Assembly: GCA_041738615.1 (NCBI GenBank)
Contig: JBGSPL010000004.1
Coordinates: 65,203-129,202, forward strand
Reading direction: 5' to 3'
Source of the DNA: Patescibacteria group bacterium
GTDB lineage: Bacteria > Patescibacteriota > CPR2 > UBA1875 > CAIMLA01
Length of the DNA stretch: 64,000 bases
Below, piece by piece: positions 9,533 to 55,604 of the stretch (positions are counted from its first letter, which is position 1; the number at the start of each line of letters is the position of its first letter). The position numbers were made by a program, and so were the translations under genes. The notes beneath the pieces were generated by a model, which worked only from the letters and a program-made list of their open reading frames with translations, made no database searches and was not told where the DNA came from.

Positions 9533-9607
9533 TGCCGATGTAGCTCAGGGGTAGAGCAGCACTTTCGTAAAGTGTTGGTCGGTGGTTCGATTCCACTCAT
9601 CGGCTCC
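9533..9607 (+). tRNA. tRNA-Thr (anticodon CGT)
   Basis: Acceptor GCCGATG/CATCGGC, D-arm AGCTCAGGGGTAGAGC, anticodon loop ttCGTaa, T-loop GGTTCGATTCC, discriminator U, CCA encoded. Confidence 0.9.
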
Positions 9608-9646
9608 AGTAATATCATTTGAAGTTGGATTGGAATATAATACAGA

Positions 9647-25722: not shown

Positions 25723-26115
25723 GTTCAGCTAGCTAGACAATCGCCCCTTCGGGGGAGGAAAGTCCGGGCACTACATGATTGGAATAGTTGCTAACGGCAA
25801 CCGGTCGTGAGGCTAGGGAAAGTGCCACAGAGACAAAACTGCCGATGACCCGTAAGGGCACAGGTGATGGTGAAAAGAGTGAGGTAAGAGCTCACAGTGA
25901 GTAGTGGTGACACTATTCAGAGGTAAACCCTATTTGGTGCAAGACAGGTGGGCTAGGGTAAGGTCGATATGATCGCCTTGGGTAAAATCCAAGGCAGTCT
26001 CTAATTCGAAAAAGTTGTAATCAGAACCCCTTACCTGCGGTCCTGTCGCGTAGATAGATGATTGTCAGATCCTAGTAATAGGACGAACAAAACCCGGCTT
26101 ACCGGCTAACTGAAC
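25723..26115 (+). ncRNA. rnpB: RNase P RNA, bacterial type A
   Basis: P4 signature AGGAAAGTCCGGGC near 5' end and ACAAAACCCGGCTTA near 3' end; P1 pairing GTTCAGCTAGC/GCTAACTGAAC; about 393 nt. Confidence 0.85.
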
Positions 26116-26120
26116 ATTAA

Positions 26121-45059: not shown

Positions 45060-46768
45060 GAAGCTAGTTTTTTGACCTCGGCGATGGTCATGAGTCCGAG
45101 GTCACCATCGGCATAGGAGCGCACCGAAAATTTGCCAGATTCTAGCTCTTTGTCTCCGACTACTAGCATAAACGGATGTTTCTGCATTTCTGCATTCCGA
45201 ATTTTCTTCCCTACAGACTCTTTACTCTCGTCGATAGTTACGCGAGCCCCTGCTTCCCTAAGTTCCTTAGCTACCTTGGCGCAGTATTCGACATGTCGGT
45301 CCGCAACAGGCAGCAAGGCTACCTGGAAAGGGGAGAGCCAGGCTGGTAATGCGCCAGCGTAGTTCTCGAGCAGAATCCCCATAAATCTCTCTAGGGAACC
45401 AAATACGGTGCGGTGAATCATTACTGGTCGCTTGCGGTCTCCGTTTTCGTCTACGTATTCAAGATCAAAGCGTTCTGGCATCGAGAAGTCGAGTTGTATA
45501 GTGGCACATTGCCAAGTGCGGCCGATAGCGTCGGTGATATGAAAGTCAAACTTGGGACCATAGAAGGCGCCATCACCAGGGTTTACGACGAAGTCTAGTT
45601 TTAGATCTTTTGCGACCTCTTCCATCACTGACTCGGCGTGCGTCCAGATCTCATCTGAGCCGATGGATTTCTCGGGGCGGGTAGAAAGCTCAACATGGTA
45701 TTTGTCAAATCCCAGCTCTTTGTACATCTTCTCAATTAGTCGGATAACCCCCTCTAATTCATCTTTGGCCTGTGCTTCGGTACAGTAGATGTGGGCATCA
45801 TCCTGAGTAAATGAGCGAACACGGAAGAGGCCATGTAGCGCTCCTGAGAGCTCATGTCTGTGCACGAGTCCTAGTTCGGCATAACGAAGGGGTAGCTCGC
45901 GGTACGAGTGAAGACCAGATTTATAGATTTGGATTCCGCCTGGGCAGTTCATCGGCTTGATAGCATATCCTTGCTCATCAATAGTAGTGAAATACATGTT
46001 GTTTTTGTAGTTGTCCCAGTGACCAGACTGGTGCCAGAGTTCCTCACGAAGGATAATTGGGGTATTAATCTCCTCATATCCAGCATTCTTGTGTTCACTT
46101 TTCCAGTATTCTGTGAGGAGGTTGCGTACCACCATTCCCTTTGGATGCCAAAAGGGGAATCCTGGTCCTTCTTCGTGGAAAGAGAAGAGGTCCAGCTCTG
46201 TACCGAGCCGACGGTGGTCGCGCTTCTTGGCTTCTTCCTGGAGTCTCTCGTAATCTGCAAGCTCTTCAGCGGTATCAAAAGCCAGGCCATAGATGCGTTG
46301 CAGCATCTTGTTCTTCTCGCTGCCTTTCCAGTAAGCACCAGCAATGGAGGTAAGCTTGAATGCCTTACTGTCTAGTTCCTTGGTATTCTCGACGTGAGGA
46401 CCAGCGCAAAGATCTACAAAGCCGTCTACGCGATAGAAAGAAACAGTTTTTTCGCCTTTTGCAGTCAGGTCCTCGATAAGCTCCGCTTTGTATATTTGCT
46501 TTTTCTTTTTGGCTTCTGCCAAAGCATCGGCGACAGGCACCTCTGAGCGCTCAAAACTGTCACCAGACTTGATGAGCTGTTTCATAGCCTTCTGTAGCAG
46601 AGGTAAGTCCTCTGGGATTAGTGTTCTAGGCAATTCGAAATCGTAATAGAAACCATTATCAATCGCTGGGCCTATTGCCAGCTTTGCCTCAGGGAACATC
46701 TCCAGTACGGCAGCTGCTAATATGTGGCCGTAGCTGTGTCTTTTAGTCTCTATACTAGCTTTACTCAT
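45056..46768 (-). CDS. thrS: threonine--tRNA ligase lacking N-terminal TGS domain; start at MSKAS (ATG 46768) overlapping the upstream ORF stop (ATGAGTAA)
   Basis: RHSYGHILAAAV editing-domain start, class II aaRS catalytic motifs, C-terminal anticodon-binding domain. Confidence 0.9.
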   Translation of the reverse strand: MSKASIETKRHSYGHILAAAVLEMFPEAKLAIGPAIDNGFYYDFELPRTLIPEDLPLLQKAMKQLIKSGDSFERSEVPVADALAEAKKKKQIYKAELIEDLTAKGEKTVSFYRVDGFVDLCAGPHVENTKELDSKAFKLTSIAGAYWKGSEKNKMLQRIYGLAFDTAEELADYERLQEEAKKRDHRRLGTELDLFSFHEEGPGFPFWHPKGMVVRNLLTEYWKSEHKNAGYEEINTPIILREELWHQSGHWDNYKNNMYFTTIDEQGYAIKPMNCPGGIQIYKSGLHSYRELPLRYAELGLVHRHELSGALHGLFRVRSFTQDDAHIYCTEAQAKDELEGVIRLIEKMYKELGFDKYHVELSTRPEKSIGSDEIWTHAESVMEEVAKDLKLDFVVNPGDGAFYGPKFDFHITDAIGRTWQCATIQLDFSMPERFDLEYVDENGDRKRPVMIHRTVFGSLERFMGILLENYAGALPAWLSPFQVALLPVADRHVEYCAKVAKELREAGARVTIDESKESVGKKIRNAEMQKHPFMLVVGDKELESGKFSVRSYADGDLGLMTIAEVKKLAS

Positions 46769-47030
46769 TTTTGTCTCCATGATCTGCTCTAATTTCTTTT
46801 ACTTGTTTTTCGGTATACTCTTTATATTTTACCAAACTCGAATCGTCTGTAATGCCTTCTCCCCAGGCCGCGTCACGAACTCTACGCCAGACCTGATCAC
46901 CCACATCTATCTGATGCTCTCCGAGAAGCCTGTCCATGTCGGTAATCTCAGCCTCAAGTTGTTCGAAAAAAGCTCGATTTGCCTTTGTGCGCTCAATCAT
47001 TTCACCTTGGTTTTCGGTTATTTCTCTCAT
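46761..47030 (-). CDS. 89-aa upstream ORF translationally coupled to thrS, unknown function
   Basis: SD aggaga 6 nt upstream; stop TAA overlaps thrS codons 2-3; acidic hydrophilic protein. Confidence 0.45.
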   Translation of the reverse strand: MREITENQGEMIERTKANRAFFEQLEAEITDMDRLLGEHQIDVGDQVWRRVRDAAWGEGITDDSSLVKYKEYTEKQVKEIRADHGDKNE

Positions 47031-47040
47031 CTTCTCTCCT

Positions 47041-47240
47041 TAAATAAAAATACGGCCAAATCTGGCCGTCAAGTCCCGTAATCCAACGGGAGGTTCCACT
47101 CGACTTTCCCCGACGCTTTGGACGGGAACTCTCTTTGGCCCATATCCACCTGGGCTCCTGGGTGAGACTCGGAGGTTGGTGAGGCCTCGTCGCGGTCTAA
47201 ATCTATGAATTGAGTATACTACCCAACGTTGTGGTTTACA
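47041..47240 (-). promoter_or_regulatory. T-box riboswitch leader (Thr; candidate specifier ACC) with antiterminator/terminator switch
   Basis: On minus strand: A1 helix GUCGAG...CUUGAC, 7-nt bulge UGGAACC (T-box core AGUGGAACC; UGGA complements UCCA end of tRNA-Thr in this window), A2 hairpin UCCCG-uuggauua-CGGGA, competing terminator ACGGCCA-gauu-UGGCCGU plus U-tract immediately before SD of downstream ORF; ACC and AGAGAG motifs in stem I region. Confidence 0.7.
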
Positions 47241-47242
47241 AA

Positions 47243-47319
47243 TGGTGGGTGATACAGGGCTCGAACCTGTGACCTCTGCAATGTCAATGCAACGCTCTAG
47301 CCAGCTGAGCTAATCACCC
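47243..47319 (-). tRNA. tRNA-Val (anticodon GAC)
   Basis: Reverse complement: acceptor GGGTGAT/ATCACCC, anticodon loop ttGACat, T-loop GGTTCGAGCCC, CCA encoded. Confidence 0.9.
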
Positions 47320-47330
47320 GCAACCCGAGT

Positions 47331-47359
47331 ATTTTAGCATTTTTTGCTTCAATTTTCAA
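47331..47359 (-). promoter_or_regulatory. promoter for tRNA-Val/T-box/thrS transcript (minus strand TTGAAA-17-TAAAAT)
   Basis: -10 atttta (plus strand) 47331..47336, -35 tttcaa 47354..47359. Confidence 0.5.
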
Positions 47360-47391
47360 CGATTTTACGCTAGAATAGGCTAGTTATTCGC

Positions 47392-47478
47392 GGGGATGTG
47401 GTGAAATTGGTATACACGCTACGTTCAGGTCGTAGTGGGGTCAAACCCGTGGGAGTTCGAGTCTCCCCATCCCCACCA
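47392..47478 (+). tRNA. tRNA-Leu (anticodon CAG), long variable arm
   Basis: Acceptor GGGGATG/CATCCCC, anticodon stem CTACG/CGTAG with loop ttCAGgt, variable arm TGGGGTCAAACCCGT, T-loop GAGTTCGAGTCTC, CCA encoded. Confidence 0.9.
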
Positions 47479-48494: not shown

Positions 48495-51400
48495 TTGCAC
48501 CAACACGCATCGAAGATTTCTTGGTATAGAAAGTGGCATGATTTTCGCTATGCACACCATGTGCATGTTGCGGCTCTGATTGGGTATGTGATTGCCCTCG
48601 GCGTATTTCTCGGGGCAAATTATTATATCGCTCCGGGCAAGGCATTCGCTGCCAACGGTAACTTTAGCCAAACGACTTTCAGTGGATCTGATGGAACTTA
48701 TACCAACACAACACCTATCAACTCCGGTGCGGATGTGGCCCTGAACCCGGTGCTTTCTAACGCCGGAGGCTCGGGCTGGCTTTATAAAAGACCAATCACT
48801 GTGACTAACGGATCTGGTGGTCCCCTGACAGATTATCCGGTAGCGGTTACTCCGTTTAGCGACTCGACCTTTGTAAACAACACCAGCCTTAACGGATCGT
48901 GGCATTTTTCGGAAGGAGCGGGCACCACTACCGTAGATAAATCCGGGAACGTCAATTCCGGCACTATGAATGGCACTAGCTACTGGACAGCCGGGGCCAC
49001 CGATGGGAAATCGGGCTATGGTTTTAACGCCGTGGCTGCTAACAGCAACTTTGTGAATGTCCCTGATAGCACGAACTTGAAATTCGGAACTGGTAATTTT
49101 TCAGTTTCGGCCTGGGTTAAGCAAACCAATACCACGGGGACACAGAATATAGTAACGAAAGGCGTTTCAGGATCGGGCATCTCCTACCTTCCAATCTATC
49201 AACTTGCCATTGTTGGTGGTAAAGTGTCGGCCTATGTTGACGGTAATAATGCTAGCGGACAGCATTACGCTTCATGCACTGGTGCAACAACCTTATCAAC
49301 GGGGACTTGGAACTTGGTCACCCTAGTTAGGACTGGCGCAACAATCTCTACTTATTTGAACGGAAATGCAACCGCAGAATGTTCTTATACCGCTGTTGCT
49401 TCAACCGGCAGTTCAGATACTACTGAGCCACTAATGATAGGCAGGGAACGACATACCAGCGCGGGTTATCGGAACTATTTCAATGGAGTAATAGACGATG
49501 TAAAGGTTTATGGACGGGCTTTGGCCGGAGCTGAAGCCGCGGTTAATTATGGAGCCACTGGAACAACTAAGATTCGCACCGATTTCCAGGACATTAGGTT
49601 CGCTAACTCGGTGACGGGGGTGGAATATCCTTATTGGCAAGAAAATGACGGAAAATTTTGGGTTAAGGTCAACAGCTTACCGAATGGCACGAACACTAAT
49701 TTTTTGAATATGTATTATGGAAACGCTAGCGCTACCCCGACGAGTAATGGTTCCAATATTTTTGCACTCTATGATGATTTCGAAAGTTACGGAATCGGTG
49801 CATTGGGCACCCAGGGGGGCTGGGTTAGTTCAGCTGGGACCAACGGCTTTGCCAATGTAGTAGCCGGAAAATATTTTGACTCGGGAATCACTAGTGGTAC
49901 TGACGGTCAGGATGGAACGGCAAGCCATGCTATTACGGCTATGAATGCGGGGGAAGTATCCTATCGTTTTAAAAGGGATAGTACGAGTAACAATTATAGC
50001 TATTTCGTGTTATCAGAAGGTGCCACCGCGCGGTTTCAAATAGTAGGAAGCAACAGTGGGGAGATTAAATATATTGGTGGTGCTTACCCTTGGACATCAC
50101 TGTCACCAGTTACGAACTGGGTTAATGGAACGTGGTATACAATTACCGTTAAATGGTATAGCAATAGTACGGCAGATATATATGTGAATGGTGTCCTGAA
50201 GAAAACTGCAGCGGCATTTGGCACATCTATGGTTACGGCTATTGATAAAGTTACGTTTACGACTAGCAGCAGCGGTGATCCGCACTCCATTCATTTGGGA
50301 ACGGATGATGTAAGAGTTCGAAAGGCCACGACAACGGAGCCGACCCATACAGCCCCGGGCACAGAGGTTGCAGCCTATAATACTACCGGCTCATATACGA
50401 CCGCCGTCCAGGCTCCTGCCGGAGTCTATAACTGGGGCGCACTTACTTATACAAAAACTACTCCTGGTTCTTCGACGGCAACAATCGACGTTTTGAACGG
50501 CACAAACGATGCTGTTATTTCATCTAATGTGGCCAGTGGGACTAATCTCAACCTATCTGGGCTGACATACCCCTCATTGAAAATAAAGGTGAATTACACG
50601 ACCTCTGCAGTCGGTAACATCCCGACCCTTAGTCAGTGGGACCTGGTTTATAGCGCAGACACTACCCCGCCAAGTGTCCCAACCGGGTTAACGATAGGGA
50701 CAGCAACTTCTAGCGCAATACCCCTTACATGGTCTGGCGCAACAGATGGCGAATCTGGGGTCCTCGGATATGAGATTTCAAGAGCGCCAGACTCGGCTGG
50801 TAATCCTGGCACCTGGGCGGCGGTGGCTACTGATTCTCCTTGCTATGGAGCAGCAGGAGTTTTGAATGCTATAAGCTGCACGGATAGCTCAGTTTCCACC
50901 CCCTTATTATCGAATTCTAAATATTTCTACCGAGTGAGGGCAAAGGATAATGCTGGTAATTTTTCTGGTTATTCTGGGGAGCAAAATGTTGATGCGAGTA
51001 CAGTGGGGCTTTGGCATCTGAATGAAGGTACGGGAGCAACAACGGCAGATTCGAGTGGTATTAATCAAACAGGGACAATGAACGGCACTAGTTATTGGAC
51101 TACTGGAAAGGTGGGTGGTGGACTCGCGGCTAACACAAATAATAACACTTCAGTTACTAGCACCGCAGCTTTAAAGCCCTCAAATTTTACAGTCGAAGCT
51201 TGGTTTTATGCTACCAGTGACCAAAATAGTAAAATTTTAGTTTCAAAATATGCTGCTCTCCCAGCTGACTATGAAATATCAATAGATGTAAACGATTACC
51301 TGAACGTAAGGTCTGATACCGCAGGATCAGTCGCTTACTATGCAACAGACAATGTCGTCTTTACAAATTATTTGAATGGCTGGCACCATGTTGCCGGGAC

Positions 51401-54400
51401 TTATGATACTGATAACAAGCTTAGGTTATACGTTGATGGTCAGTTAAAAGGCACAAGCGCGGCCTTTACCAGGGCGAATTCAAGAACTGATTTACTTACG
51501 TTTGGAAGAAGGGCTTACGCAGGTGCCGAATCACCTTTTACGGGTAAAATCGACGAGGTTCGGATCTCGAACACAGCTCGTTCGGCAGCCGATATCCTAG
51601 CCTATTACACTGAATCAAACCCACAGCCAAAATCTACCACTACTCTTCCTGGTGTTCCGACGGCTTTTACGGGTAGTGCAGTTTCGACATCGGCAATCAA
51701 TATGACTTGGTCAGCTCCAGCTGGAGGTGCGGATCACTATCATGTGAAGTACTCTGGCGATGGTTACGCTTCAAATATTTATAACAATGCTACGGCTGCC
51801 TTTGATGATACTGGCAGGGGTGCCAATACATCATATACATACCGTCTCTACTCGGTAAATGCTAGCGGGGCGGAGTCAGATACCTACTCTGAAATAACCA
51901 AATCTACCTGGGTAAATGCTCCCGTCAATCAAACGGCCACTACTGTCTCTAATACTCAAATTAATCTAGCTTGGGAAGCAGGCGCTAACGGTGCGAACCA
52001 TTACCACGTTCGTTCGTCGTCAGATGCTTATGCTACGCTCAAATATGACAATACTACAGCGAGCTGGAATGAAAGCGGTCTCACGGGCAATACGGCCTAC
52101 ACTTATCGTATCTACGCCGTCAGTGTCGATAATGTCGAAAATACTAGCTATGTGACAGCTACCAACACCACACTTACGAACACACCAGTGTTAGCTGCTC
52201 AAACTACTCCGACCAATGATAATACCCCACAGATTCATTCTACGACCATAGATAGTTCCGCCGCGAACCGCACAGTTAAGCTATACCAAGGGGCATCTCT
52301 GGTGGCTACCACTACAGCTGCCGCCAACGGTACCTTTACCTTTGCCAACGGAGACTGGGGCGCCAACACACTGGCCGATGGAGTGTATACCGATCTTGTT
52401 GCGAAATCAGTTAATAGTGCCGGGCAGGAAAGCGTGGCTTCTGTTGCTCTAAACTTGCCGACTGGGTTATTGATAGATACTCATGCACCGTCTTCTAGCG
52501 TAACCAATAATCCTACGCTTCCCGGAGACCACAACGGCTATTTTGTTACAAACCCTGTGATTACCCTCACTGCCATAGACGATGCCCCTTCAAGCGGAAC
52601 AACAGTTCACTACCGTTGGGGAGCCGACGCTTTTGCTACTTATTCTGGAACGATCAGTATCCCGGCACAAGGCGAGAACACACTCAACTGGTATGCGACC
52701 GACGGTGCCGGCAACATCGAGAGCACGCACACGGAAACATACATGTTGGATAGCGTGAAGCCTGCTGGTAACATTTCTTTCCAATACGAGTATGCTCATT
52801 TCGATCCAGAGCTACTAATTCTCGACGCGAGTGATGATACGAGCGGTGTAGATAGTGTACGGTTGTCCAACGACGGAGTAACATTTTGTACGATTCCCTA
52901 CACTCAATACATTCAGTGGAATTTCTCCGGGCTGATTACCGATGATCCGTATATATATGGCGCTGATTGCGGTATGAACTATGGAGGTGAGGGGGCCAAT
53001 ACTATTTACTTTAGTTTTGTAGACGGGGCCCTGAACGTAAGTGACACACAGACCGTTTCGATCATCCTAGATAGCATTGAGCCAGTGAACCCTACAGCTA
53101 CAGTTACGGCAACGCCAGCAGGAGGTGCAAACGGCTGGTACAAGAGTGCTGCGCCAACCTTTACTTTAACCGGTGCTTCTGACGCGACAAGCGGCCTAGA
53201 TGGCTACTTTGTCCTATTTACTACAGACCCATTGGCGGAACCGGTAGTAGACGGTATATATCAGGCAGTGAATCCTGGAGGTGACACTTTTACGCCTACC
53301 ATAGACCCTGCAGATTCGGGCAAGACATTTTACCTGCGTGTTCAGGCAAGAGATGGTGCTCTCAACTTGCATTGGGGTCCGGACGAAGCAAATCTGACCA
53401 TATTTACGTATAAGTATGACGGCACCAATCCCGCAGCAATCAGCTTTATTACGCCATCCCCAGCGGGCTGGAGCGCTACAAACAACTTCGATTTCGCGTG
53501 GCCAAAGACGAGCGATATAGACAGCAATGGCGCCTCCTCGGGTATGGATGGTTATCTCTACCGTCGTAAGCTAGCTGCAGACAGCGATACCTATGAGAGT
53601 TGGGATAAGGGGAGTCGTTTTGTTGCGCAACCAGCGGGTAGCACTGTGAATCTAAACGATATCGAGGCCCTGTATACTGGCCTAAACGTGATAGAGATTA
53701 AGGCGCTGGACAAGGTCGGTAATGAATCGGCCGCAAAACCTGTAAATTACTACTATTCTGGCGATATTCCGCAGCCCACGAATCTAAGTGTCGATCTTTC
53801 CCAGTCAAATAACATGACAGTAAACAGATATAACTTCAGTTGGAACGCTCCTACCGGTGTGACTCCTCAGGGCTACTATTACTCGGTGAATGCAGAGCCT
53901 GATACTCAAAACAGTACTTTTATTCCTTATAATGAGGGTGGTAGTACGAGTACCGGATTTGCGGCTTTTGCCACGAAGACAGGGCTTAACAAGTTTTATG
54001 TAGTGACTAAAGCGAATGACATGGTTGGTTGGACCAACTTTGAGATGGCCGAGTTTACCTGTAACACCTCGGCGCCAGGGATTCCGACTGGTGTGATGAT
54101 AACGGATTCCTCGAGTCGCGATAGCGAACGATGGCAACTTACCGTAAATTGGGATCAGCCAGCTCAGATTTCCACTGATTTCAATGGTTATGCCATCGAG
54201 CGGAGCACCGATGGGACGAATTTCTCCGAGATCGCGACCACGGGTGAAAATACAACTGGCTATTTGGATACAAATTTGCTAAACGTTTCTACCTATTATT
54301 ATAGAGTGAAGTCGAGAGACAATACGGGTAATAAATCGCCAGCATCCACTGTCGTTTCGCGTCAGCCCACTGGTCGCTATACTGAGCCTCCAAAGATGAT

Positions 54401-55604
54401 AGGGGACCCAAAGATAGAGGTCCAGGCAACCAAAGCAATCATCGACTTTACTACAGAACGCGATGCCGACTCCTTTGTACAGGTCGGGACAACAACAACC
54501 TATGGTATGACTCAGGGGCAGCTCGATAGCACTAGCAGCCATACCGTGAATCTATCCGGACTCACCCCCGGAGTCTTCTACCACTATCGTGCTATGTGGC
54601 GTGATATAGACGGGAACATCGGCTACAGCAAGGACTATACATTCAAGACCCAGGATGCGCCTGGTATTTCGGAGGTAAATGTCAGTAGTATTGGTCTCAC
54701 GAGTGCTATCGTGAGCTGGAAGACGAATACTGTTTCCTCGTCCGTGGTCAAATATGGTAAAACAAATACTTACGGCTCTCAGGTAGAAGACAGGTCTGGC
54801 TCTGGCGTCACAGTTCATGTGGTGAAAATAGACGGTCTCAACGACTCTACTACTTACCATTTTAAAATTTCAGGCACCGATACAGACGGCAATGGACTCA
54901 GTAGCGACGATTATTCGTTTGAGACCCTCACCTTCCCACGAGTTTCAGATGTCAAGATTACCCAAAAGGCCGACGAGGTTACCTCGACGATTGTTGTTAC
55001 TTGGTCTACAAATGTACCGACAGACTCAGTAGTGAACTACTCTGGAGGCGGCACAAACAAGGAATCATCCAAGGCACTGCTAGAGCAAAAACATAGCATT
55101 ACCGTGGGTAATCTACGCGACAACACCGCATACACCATCAGTGTCGGGGGCAGAGACGCATACGGTAATCAGGCCGAGGGCGGCAGTGCCAGCTACAAGA
55201 CAGCGTTTGATACCAGACCACCACAGATCACAGCGATTACGACTGAGACCTCGATAGTGGGCTTTGGTATCGATGCAAAGGGTCAGGTCATAGTTTCATG
55301 GGAAACCGACGAACCTAGTACTTCTCAAGTAGAGTACGGCGTAGGAGTCTCTGGAGACGACTATTCGCAGAAGACACAGGAGGATACGGGTCTTACTACC
55401 ACCCATGTCGTCGTTATGTCTGGTCTCAAGCCATCGACTTCTTACCATTTCCAGGTAGTATCCAAGGATGCTTCGGGCAACACCGCAAGCTCCGAGGATA
55501 CCTCGTTTCTTACCGACCAGGCGAGCTCTTCTGTGCTCGATATCATCGTCAATTCGCTGCAATCAACAATTGGCTGGATTTTCGGCTCATTCGCTAGGAG
55601 GTAA
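48495..55604 (+). CDS. giant (2369 aa) secreted multidomain surface protein: signal/TM anchor, DUF2341 with inserted LamG jelly-roll, second LamG, at least 8 FN3-like modules, Ig-like domain; exact start uncertain (TTG 48495; in-frame SD aggaggg at 48416)
   Basis: GWLYKRPITVTNG...DYPVAVT and TKIRTDFQDIRFANSVTGVEYPYWQENDGKFWVKVNSLPNGTNTNFLNMYYGN = DUF2341 halves; LamG signatures GTMNGTSYWT.G and LYVDGQLKGT...GKIDEVRIS; FN3 motifs with conserved W and YxYR(V/L)xAxD. Confidence 0.8.
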   Translation: MHQHASKISWYRKWHDFRYAHHVHVAALIGYVIALGVFLGANYYIAPGKAFAANGNFSQTTFSGSDGTYTNTTPINSGADVALNPVLSNAGGSGWLYKRPITVTNGSGGPLTDYPVAVTPFSDSTFVNNTSLNGSWHFSEGAGTTTVDKSGNVNSGTMNGTSYWTAGATDGKSGYGFNAVAANSNFVNVPDSTNLKFGTGNFSVSAWVKQTNTTGTQNIVTKGVSGSGISYLPIYQLAIVGGKVSAYVDGNNASGQHYASCTGATTLSTGTWNLVTLVRTGATISTYLNGNATAECSYTAVASTGSSDTTEPLMIGRERHTSAGYRNYFNGVIDDVKVYGRALAGAEAAVNYGATGTTKIRTDFQDIRFANSVTGVEYPYWQENDGKFWVKVNSLPNGTNTNFLNMYYGNASATPTSNGSNIFALYDDFESYGIGALGTQGGWVSSAGTNGFANVVAGKYFDSGITSGTDGQDGTASHAITAMNAGEVSYRFKRDSTSNNYSYFVLSEGATARFQIVGSNSGEIKYIGGAYPWTSLSPVTNWVNGTWYTITVKWYSNSTADIYVNGVLKKTAAAFGTSMVTAIDKVTFTTSSSGDPHSIHLGTDDVRVRKATTTEPTHTAPGTEVAAYNTTGSYTTAVQAPAGVYNWGALTYTKTTPGSSTATIDVLNGTNDAVISSNVASGTNLNLSGLTYPSLKIKVNYTTSAVGNIPTLSQWDLVYSADTTPPSVPTGLTIGTATSSAIPLTWSGATDGESGVLGYEISRAPDSAGNPGTWAAVATDSPCYGAAGVLNAISCTDSSVSTPLLSNSKYFYRVRAKDNAGNFSGYSGEQNVDASTVGLWHLNEGTGATTADSSGINQTGTMNGTSYWTTGKVGGGLAANTNNNTSVTSTAALKPSNFTVEAWFYATSDQNSKILVSKYAALPADYEISIDVNDYLNVRSDTAGSVAYYATDNVVFTNYLNGWHHVAGTYDTDNKLRLYVDGQLKGTSAAFTRANSRTDLLTFGRRAYAGAESPFTGKIDEVRISNTARSAADILAYYTESNPQPKSTTTLPGVPTAFTGSAVSTSAINMTWSAPAGGADHYHVKYSGDGYASNIYNNATAAFDDTGRGANTSYTYRLYSVNASGAESDTYSEITKSTWVNAPVNQTATTVSNTQINLAWEAGANGANHYHVRSSSDAYATLKYDNTTASWNESGLTGNTAYTYRIYAVSVDNVENTSYVTATNTTLTNTPVLAAQTTPTNDNTPQIHSTTIDSSAANRTVKLYQGASLVATTTAAANGTFTFANGDWGANTLADGVYTDLVAKSVNSAGQESVASVALNLPTGLLIDTHAPSSSVTNNPTLPGDHNGYFVTNPVITLTAIDDAPSSGTTVHYRWGADAFATYSGTISIPAQGENTLNWYATDGAGNIESTHTETYMLDSVKPAGNISFQYEYAHFDPELLILDASDDTSGVDSVRLSNDGVTFCTIPYTQYIQWNFSGLITDDPYIYGADCGMNYGGEGANTIYFSFVDGALNVSDTQTVSIILDSIEPVNPTATVTATPAGGANGWYKSAAPTFTLTGASDATSGLDGYFVLFTTDPLAEPVVDGIYQAVNPGGDTFTPTIDPADSGKTFYLRVQARDGALNLHWGPDEANLTIFTYKYDGTNPAAISFITPSPAGWSATNNFDFAWPKTSDIDSNGASSGMDGYLYRRKLAADSDTYESWDKGSRFVAQPAGSTVNLNDIEALYTGLNVIEIKALDKVGNESAAKPVNYYYSGDIPQPTNLSVDLSQSNNMTVNRYNFSWNAPTGVTPQGYYYSVNAEPDTQNSTFIPYNEGGSTSTGFAAFATKTGLNKFYVVTKANDMVGWTNFEMAEFTCNTSAPGIPTGVMITDSSSRDSERWQLTVNWDQPAQISTDFNGYAIERSTDGTNFSEIATTGENTTGYLDTNLLNVSTYYYRVKSRDNTGNKSPASTVVSRQPTGRYTEPPKMIGDPKIEVQATKAIIDFTTERDADSFVQVGTTTTYGMTQGQLDSTSSHTVNLSGLTPGVFYHYRAMWRDIDGNIGYSKDYTFKTQDAPGISEVNVSSIGLTSAIVSWKTNTVSSSVVKYGKTNTYGSQVEDRSGSGVTVHVVKIDGLNDSTTYHFKISGTDTDGNGLSSDDYSFETLTFPRVSDVKITQKADEVTSTIVVTWSTNVPTDSVVNYSGGGTNKESSKALLEQKHSITVGNLRDNTAYTISVGGRDAYGNQAEGGSASYKTAFDTRPPQITAITTETSIVGFGIDAKGQVIVSWETDEPSTSQVEYGVGVSGDDYSQKTQEDTGLTTTHVVVMSGLKPSTSYHFQVVSKDASGNTASSEDTSFLTDQASSSVLDIIVNSLQSTIGWIFGSFARR

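Follow-up and report, generated by a model that had tools for sequence, protein, structure and literature searches.

What controls thrS, the gene for threonyl-tRNA synthetase (ThrRS), in the Patescibacteria group bacterium whose contig JBGSPL010000004.1 (assembly GCA_041738615.1) contains the 64,000-nucleotide (nt) stretch analyzed here (positions 65,203 to 129,202; "the window")? On the minus strand of the window, a promoter-like site is followed by tRNA-Val(GAC), a 212-nt non-coding stretch, a Shine-Dalgarno (SD) sequence with an 89-amino-acid (aa) open reading frame (ORF89), thrS, and a 121-aa ORF. A preliminary description of this DNA took the non-coding stretch for a T-box leader that lacks a promoter and is fused behind the tRNA gene, and held this arrangement to be its unusual trait. 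On the strength of sequence comparisons, we propose, with a probability of roughly 0.8, that minus-strand positions 47198-47042 form a functional, transcription-attenuating tRNA-Thr T-box that is driven by a promoter of its own (47241-47213) and regulates an operon of ORF89 and thrS. The interest of this locus is a conserved, reduced T-box architecture that is missed by the standard model, not a tRNA fusion.

A conserved leader upstream of thrS

We gathered relatives from contigs encoding ThrRS homologs and from one metagenome pattern scan; the loci are designated here by L numbers. Comparison with related thrS leaders, which the preliminary description had proposed, revealed the same leader in 15 distinct loci, where it immediately precedes either thrS itself or small ORFs that lie before thrS. 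The ThrRS proteins of these loci are between 65% (L101) and 96% (L082) identical to that of the window. R1, a covariance model based on 14 of the 15 loci, scores all members at 151 to 174 bits, including L101 at 168 bits; we found no such leader in L089, L100, or L009 (ThrRS identities of 68%, 63%, and 59%). L090 (63%) carries a more divergent leader (positions 2364-2492; 20 bits with R1), which has a 7-nt CCACCAA loop, a UGGAACC bulge, a weak terminator, and no obvious counterpart of the pseudoknot described below; it may be an even more reduced form. Within the window, neither R1 nor the core motif detected other copies of the leader, and none of the ten ORFs of ≥387 aa that we checked is another aminoacyl-tRNA synthetase gene.

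The leader's significance comes from conservation and covariation, not from its core motif or the stability of its fold: a single occurrence of the 10-nt core RRGTGGNACC in the window, compared to 1.38 expected, is not significant alone, and the single-sequence fold of the 218-nt leader is not unusually stable (z = −0.57). When we applied a structural model to the alignment of 14 related leaders, 99.2% of cells were standard pairs, and eight pairs (21 cells) had double changes, one in each strand. Of 500 shuffles, none attained any of five measures, and a control in which partners were slid by 1 to 3 columns gave no more than one double-changed pair and no more than 46% pairing. A blind RNAalifold run on this alignment recovered Stem I, the second pseudoknot helix, Stem III, the antiterminator (A1/bulge/A2), and the downstream hairpin; 13 of the pairs that it returned are compensatory. 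We rejected the minimum free energy fold of the single sequence, in which the specifier region pairs with the pseudoknot region: it showed no double changes and 10% broken cells, and its pairing was no better than that of shuffles.

The part of the leader that begins with Stem I and ends with the antiterminator is ∼130 nt long. Its first element is an ultrashort, 34-nt Stem I (47198-47165), composed of a C-stem (AGAC/GUCU), a predicted kink-turn (K-turn), a 4-base-pair (bp) GAGG/CCUC helix, and a 9-nt apical loop (CCUCACCAA), which presents the specifier codon ACC (Thr; 47180-47178) and then a conserved A at 47177. Three of the four C-stem pairs and one of the four upper pairs show changes on both sides. 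The K-turn at the base of Stem I, with a 3-nt variable bulge and tandem G.A/A.G pairs, follows the consensus 5'-Cstem-NNN-GA-N-GAGG...CCUC-N-GA-Cstem' across the 14 leaders; its bulge bases vary freely, and its GA/GA pairs are conserved except for a variant in L095. Stem I ends at 47165 and directly abuts the first pseudoknot strand at 47164, leaving no room for Stem II, and we did not find an AGUA/GAA-type internal loop (S-turn) in the leader. The H-type pseudoknot (47164-47138; CACC/GGUG plus GCCCA/UGGGC) is a putative equivalent of the IIA/B element of known T-boxes. It is 100% paired in the alignment, with one double change (C-G to U-A in L087), and its F-box sequence differs from the canonical one.

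A purine string, AAAGAGAG (47136-47129), provides the RRRxG or "RAG" motif 5' of Stem III. AAAGAG is invariant in the 14 leaders; the purine-string motif reads GAGAG or GAGUG in 12 of them, GAGCG in L092, and GAGUU, which departs at the final G, in L097. Stem III and the conserved AA that follows it occupy 47127-47105. All 14 leaders have a 5- to 8-bp hairpin of differing sequence at this position, with covariation, to which L093 adds an inner 5-bp extension; the AA is replaced by GA in L093 and L097. The antiterminator (47104-47068) consists of helix A1 (GUCGAG/CUUGAC; 47104-47099 with 47073-47068), the T-box bulge UGGAACC (47098-47092), and the A2 hairpin (47091-47074); the T-box core, GAGUGGAACC, lies at 47101-47092 on the minus strand. 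A1 is 100% paired, UGGAACC is invariant, and the A2 pair adjacent to the bulge occurs as five types (G-C, U-A, A-U, G-U, and C-G). An intrinsic terminator, ACGGCCA...UGGCCGU plus a U-tract, extends over 47069-47042 (the hairpin and U-tract were called at 47069-47052). The terminator hairpin is 95% paired across the relatives, and both hairpin and U-tract are conserved. Located 3' of both, the SD sequence AAGGAG (47041-47036) is unpaired in all folds.

Identity of the leader and its place among T-box classes

The specifier is ACC in 11 and ACU in 3 of the 14 leaders, followed by A in each; all lie upstream of thrS, and both are Thr codons. Only the specifier frame varies synonymously, since the neighboring frames of the loop would give His→Asn or Pro→Leu changes. 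The single tRNA-Thr gene in the window, tRNA-Thr(CGU) at 9534-9608, ends in ...GGC-U-CCA (U73-CCA), which is complementary to the UGGA of the bulge, just as had been stated in the preliminary description. This tRNA cannot read ACC, and the isoacceptor that the leader is predicted to sense, tRNA-Thr(GGU), must be encoded outside the window. Published T-box motifs include a 7-nt UGGN-ACC bulge between A1 and A2, an RRRxG-Stem III-AA series, and a K-turn in Stem I (PMC7583486, PMC7778990, PMC11297988); the leader agrees with the bulge, purine string-Stem III-AA, and K-turn motifs.

The Rfam T-box model RF00230, whose failure would have refuted the T-box by the criterion of the preliminary description, did not match at its gathering threshold (93 bits) anywhere in the window, nor at E ≤ 10 in segments of 521 nt or 170 nt; it also failed to match the relatives L082-L086 at E ≤ 1. 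A separate contig scan with ThrRS returned only relatives of ≤59% identity, mostly Firmicutes with canonical T-boxes, which served as controls only. RF00230 scores canonical thrS leaders at 93 to 128 bits. R1 bridges the two sets. It finds canonical Firmicute thrS T-boxes (L012 at E = 4.7e-5) and also scores L073, L001, L072, and L005 at the same sites where RF00230 gives 96 to 121 bits; in its alignments to canonical leaders, AAAGAG, Stem III, AA, A1, UGGAACC, and A2 are in register, as is the ACC specifier in L073. The RF00230 alignment of a Clostridium thrS leader shows a IIA hairpin with a CCU loop and a downstream AGG directly before GUAAAGAGA and Stem III, and the pseudoknot in the window has the same topology and position as IIA/B in that leader. 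Because the comparative evidence shows a T-box, the failure of RF00230 is best regarded as a false negative that reflects a limit of the model. Covariation, the specifier, and the R1 cross-matches support the earlier assignment of a T-box with core and antiterminator, and we classify the leader, from its predicted structure, as a threonine T-box of an architecture that RF00230 does not cover.

We considered that this conserved RNA might not sense tRNA at all, and instead be, for example, a ThrRS-binding operator (as in Escherichia coli thrS) or a site for another protein, with a constitutive attenuator. RF00230 does fail here, and both known auxiliary tRNA-binding modules are absent; however, the UGGA-ACC bulge, A1/A2, purine string-Stem III-AA, and K-turn fit T-box definitions, and the same covariance model matches canonical T-boxes, making such a role very unlikely. 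Mimicry of the E. coli-type ThrRS operator was rejected separately, because the loop holds a Thr codon (ACY) rather than an anticodon-like GGU or CGU.

The threonine T-box assignment raises the question of which class the leader belongs to. Class I T-boxes combine a distal Stem I platform with Stem II, and in class II (Gly) the platform comes without a Stem II domain. In classes III and IV, which regulate translation, Stem I is short or of intermediate length and Stem II is required. The platform, the S-turn, or the two together strengthen tRNA binding (PMC10482949). The leader has no long Stem I with an AG bulge and a distal loop platform (the interdigitated T-loop structure associated with the tRNA elbow), and no Stem II with an S-turn. 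Nor did we find the SD sequestration by an alternative helix that is typical of translational classes III and IV, as the SD is unpaired.

Its closest likeness to class I (RF00230; the Clostridium and Virgibacillus thrS leaders L001 and L073, and Bacillus subtilis tyrS and thrS) lies in the K-turn at the base of Stem I, an ACC specifier followed by a purine, a putative IIA/B-type pseudoknot immediately before AAAGAG, Stem III, and AA, the A1/UGGAACC/A2 antiterminator, and an intrinsic terminator upstream of thrS. In contrast to class I, its Stem I is 34 nt, versus ∼105 nt in L001, and has no internal specifier loop, AG bulge, or distal platform; it lacks Stem II and the S-turn, as well as the conserved G.U pair at the bulge-proximal end of A2; and it is missed by RF00230. 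The terminators differ as well: the canonical one is built from the entire 3' half of the antiterminator (in L012, it takes in 8 nt of A2 and A1), compared to 2 to 4 nt of A1 for this leader and its relatives, where the terminator is a separate hairpin.

Class III, exemplified by the actinobacterial ileS leaders of Nocardia farcinica and Mycobacterium tuberculosis (PMC10482949), shares the short Stem I without an elbow platform, the specifier in the apical loop, the K-turn, and, putatively, the IIA/B pseudoknot. However, class III T-boxes depend on a long, S-turn-bearing Stem II and regulate translation via SD sequestration, while our leader lacks Stem II and has a terminator upstream of the SD; its loop is 9 nt rather than 5 to 6 nt, its specificity Thr rather than Ile, and its host a bacterium resembling the Candidate Phyla Radiation (CPR) rather than an actinobacterium. 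Like class II (glyQS; PMC11297988, PMC10482949), the leader appears transcriptional, is predicted to work without Stem II, and would form a GC-rich specifier-anticodon duplex (GGC in glyQS, ACC here), but glyQS keeps the long Stem I with its elbow platform and lacks the IIA/B pseudoknot, which is the reverse of the combination predicted for this leader. The rule that the third specifier base is C has been attributed to the S-turn (PMC7583486); the U in this position in 3 of the 14 leaders fits the absence of an S-turn.

Since the distal double T-loop platform of Stem I and the S-turn of Stem II are both lacking, we place the leader, as predicted, in a reduced architecture outside published classes I to IV. 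Whether it deserves the rank of a fifth architectural class is close to an even question, on which we lean slightly toward the negative: such a class would be a natural minimal transcriptional T-box of ∼130 nt, in which the genetic decision would come down to a contest for the two basal pairs of the terminator stem. We found no description of such a reduced architecture in the searchable literature, and no literature on T-box riboswitches in the CPR/Patescibacteria; the leader would then be the first T-box to be reported from CPR/Patescibacteria-like bacteria. TBDB was built on RF00230 and a class II model restricted to Actinobacteria (PMC7778990). Surveys based on RF00230, including TBDB, can miss T-boxes, and that candidate-phyla genomes seem to lack T-boxes may in part be an artifact of detection. 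A conserved, terminator-bearing leader that lacks both modules also challenges the rules that transcriptional T-boxes need the platform for fast tRNA capture and that a short Stem I needs an S-turn (PMC7583486, PMC10482949). As a natural scaffold of very small size, it is also of use for structural studies and for engineering tRNA sensors. For genome annotation, it suggests that thrS of this lineage is regulated by sensing of charged tRNA, with an accessory-gene slot under the same control.

Terminator, promoter, and upstream tRNA genes

How would such a leader switch? The preliminary description spoke of a terminator overlapping the antiterminator; the terminator hairpin with its U-tract is indeed present, but the overlap is marginal. 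The terminator and A1 share only the AC at 47069-47068 in the window (2 nt) and 2 to 4 nt in the relatives. The shared AC would form both the outermost pairs of A1 and the basal pairs of the terminator beside the U-tract. In known T-box complexes, uncharged tRNA bound at the specifier and at UGGA stabilizes A1, and the purines of Stem III dock on A1. By analogy, the Stem I apical loop would present ACC plus a purine, and uncharged tRNA-Thr(GGU) would pair with both the specifier and UGGA. This pairing would lock A1, including its two outermost pairs, and thereby cut the terminator to 5 bp that end 2 nt from the U-tract, so that RNA polymerase could read through. Charged tRNA, being unable to stabilize A1, would allow the end of A1 to fray; the full 7-bp terminator would then form and stop transcription. 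The predicted energies are −23.6 kcal/mol in total for A1, A2, and the 5-bp remnant hairpin, and −12.2 kcal/mol for the full terminator alone, to which A2 is added in that state; the terminator and antiterminator states are predicted to lie within a few kcal/mol of each other.

Several observations weigh against our proposal of a functional tRNA-Thr T-box. Taken alone, the antiterminator together with the truncated hairpin has a predicted stability no lower than that of the terminator state; because of this, and because the overlap is only 2 to 4 nt, the default state and dynamic range of the switch are uncertain. The leader has neither the distal platform nor Stem II, and it has been reported that transcriptional T-boxes need the platform and that RNAs with a short Stem I barely bind tRNA without Stem II (PMC7583486). 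RF00230 returns no match, even at E ≤ 10; the window does not encode the cognate tRNA-Thr(GGU), and the CGU isoacceptor that it does encode cannot read ACC; all relatives come from one lineage, with an effective sequence number of 1.58; and the pseudoknot is supported by a single double change.

The loss of the distal elements of Stem I and of Stem II, together with the minimal overlap of terminator and antiterminator, could also be read as signs of a decaying relic of a canonical T-box, which no longer regulates and whose terminator serves only tRNA-Val or acts as a fixed attenuator. Decay is difficult to reconcile with a leader whose conservation exceeds that of the protein encoded downstream (L101 scores 168 bits at a ThrRS identity of 65%), with helices maintained by compensatory changes, and with specifier variation that is strictly synonymous. 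We therefore consider a relic exceedingly improbable and favor a T-box that still attenuates transcription of thrS.

The question of how the leader is transcribed bears on the arrangement that first drew attention to this locus. As described earlier, tRNA-Val(GAC) (47319-47243, CCA encoded; identified by ARAGORN, 66.2 bits with the Rfam tRNA model) is preceded by a promoter-like site, TTGAAA-17-TAAAAT, with a TG before the −10 (47359-47331; 10 of 12 matches). What had been read as a T-box leader starting 2 nt after the tRNA is, for its first ∼35 nt, a putative promoter: a σ70-type element, TTGTAA-17-TATACT (47241-47213; 9 of 12 matches), begins 2 nt past the CCA, transcription is predicted to start near 47206, and the conserved structured RNA starts at 47198. 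A −35/−10 pair scoring 8 to 11 of 12 precedes all 14 of the related leaders that we scanned, and the −10 ends 9 to 17 nt ahead of Stem I in 13 of them; for L092, the call depends on an extended −10 (TGTTATAAT) read by eye. The claim that the T-box has no promoter of its own did not hold up to this comparison.

Upstream contexts also vary. The leader follows tRNA-Val(GAC) in the window and L082, tRNA-Leu(CAG) in L083, L086, and L097, tRNA-Val(CAC) in L098, a 23-nt tRNA fragment in L087, and an uncalled tRNA-like 3' end, seen by eye, in L084 and L093. In L085 and L101, a divergently oriented gene and no tRNA lies upstream, and there is no tRNA nearby in L091, L092, or L095; at least 5 of the 15 related leaders (L085, L091, L092, L095, and L101) thus have no adjacent tRNA gene, and in L091 and L092 tRNA genes are absent across ∼4 kb. 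The same leader therefore occurs without the tRNA behind which a promoterless T-box had been thought to be fused.

Could the T-box nevertheless be made only as a 3' extension of the tRNA-Val transcript, in one obligatory transcription unit? We found no terminator-like site between tRNA-Val and the leader in the window, and a tRNA gene or 3' fragment in the same orientation ends 40 to 60 nt upstream of the leader in 9 of the 15 related loci. However, the gap is occupied by TTGTAA-17-TATACT, with a comparable pair before each of the leaders scanned; the identity of the upstream tRNA changes from locus to locus (Val-GAC, Leu-CAG, or Val-CAC); and the tRNA-free loci, two of which have a divergent gene in its place, keep the leader. 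Obligatory cotranscription is unlikely. Given the conserved promoter between the two and the different upstream contexts, we take the leader to be a predicted independent transcription unit with its own promoter and tRNA-Val to be a separate upstream gene. Read-through from tRNA-Val into the leader is likely because no terminator follows the tRNA gene; such transcripts would probably also end at, or come under the control of, the T-box terminator, which may double as the terminator of the tRNA-Val gene.

Other features of these tRNA neighborhoods may be recorded here. In L087, an exact 23-nt duplication (1767-1789 and 1938-1960) of the 3' end of tRNA-Val(CAC) brackets a 148-nt insert directly upstream of the T-box promoter and resembles the scar of an element integrated into a tRNA gene. 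Across the lineage, tRNA-Val(GAC) and tRNA-Leu(CAG) accompany the thrS leader (window 47243-47478; L082-L098) with rearranged order and orientation: the pair is divergent in the window and tandem in L086, and tRNA-Val is inverted in L083. A NUDIX gene lies between them in L082 and L087, and an 82-aa ORF, GIY-YIG-like by eye, in L084. In L004 (2565-2824), a high-GC actinobacterial metagenome-assembled genome, tRNA-Val(GAC) with its own terminator is located upstream of thrS, the locus has no T-box, and its ThrRS retains TGS; this shared neighborhood may be coincidence or old synteny.

ORF89, thrS, and neighboring genes

ORF89 (47030-46761) encodes a small acidic protein of 89 aa and is preceded by the SD sequence AAGGAG, as in the preliminary description. 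thrS (46768-45056; 570 aa) has its own SD, GGAG, within the 3' end of ORF89. The ORF89 stop codon (TAA, 46763-46761) falls within thrS codons 2 to 3, such that ATGAGTAA forms an 8-nt overlap with the thrS start; this agrees with the overlap and translational coupling proposed earlier. Gene callers picked the same two genes on an identical public contig. ThrRS contains the tRNA_SAD, class II core, and anticodon-binding domains and no N-terminal TGS domain by Pfam, again as previously noted; TGS is also absent from nearly all close ThrRS homologs (61 to 96% identity, ∼570 aa). One homolog, 63% identical, is labeled Peregrinibacteria. For the glutamate dehydrogenase encoded nearby, the closest matches with a name are "candidate division CPR2" (61%) and "Patescibacteria group" (58%), which points to a probable CPR/Patescibacteria-like metagenome-assembled genome.

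Because ORF89 immediately precedes a ThrRS that lacks TGS, its identity is of some interest. It has no Pfam match at E ≤ 0.1, in agreement with the earlier statement that it belongs to no recognizable family, and a word-based search of 5.8 billion clusters returned only ORF89 itself. An exhaustive HMMER pass over 1.84 billion representatives, which answers the earlier call for homologs, found one true relative and one spurious repeat protein. The relative is the ORF at the same position in L086, with 41% identity over 69 aa; ThrRS in that locus is 81% identical to that of the window. AlphaFold2 models ORF89 as three helices with modest to low confidence (predicted local distance difference test score of 67). 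The TGS domain (PF02824) has a beta-grasp fold. We ruled out ORF89 as a TGS domain, since the TGS profile does not match it and it is predicted to be all-helical; the earlier view was the same.

The slot between leader and thrS varies in content among the L082-L101 loci. It is empty in four of them: L082 (ThrRS 96% identical), L088, L095, and L098. Unrelated small ORFs occupy it in L084/L093, L087/L092, and L083/L085, and two ORFs are found in L091/L097 and in L101; across the occupied slots, the small ORFs, one or two per locus, comprise at least four mutually unrelated families of 52 to 201 aa. A Pfam search of seven slot ORFs from the relatives yielded nothing. In most occupied slots, the stop codon of the final ORF overlaps or abuts the thrS start. 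We regard ORF89, judging from its position and its distribution among the relatives, as a real, fast-evolving, lineage-restricted gene, putatively under T-box control, and not as a detached TGS domain.

Downstream, the 121-aa ORF (45059-44694, minus strand), located 3' of thrS, overlaps the thrS stop codon (ATGA). It has a subthreshold match to nucleoside 2-deoxyribosyltransferase (24.7 bits, with a cutoff of 28.8). A 121-aa ORF is also called at this position in L082, with a weak match to the same family, and in L083, and none is called there in L084-L087. Elsewhere in the window, positions 25725-26117 encode a bacterial class A RNase P RNA (190 bits), which is ordinary for such genomes. A 2369-aa ORF occupies 48495-55604; the matching gene on the identical public contig (L081) is called at 2347 aa and has Pfam laminin-G, DUF2341, and faint fibronectin-III matches, also ordinary for such genomes.

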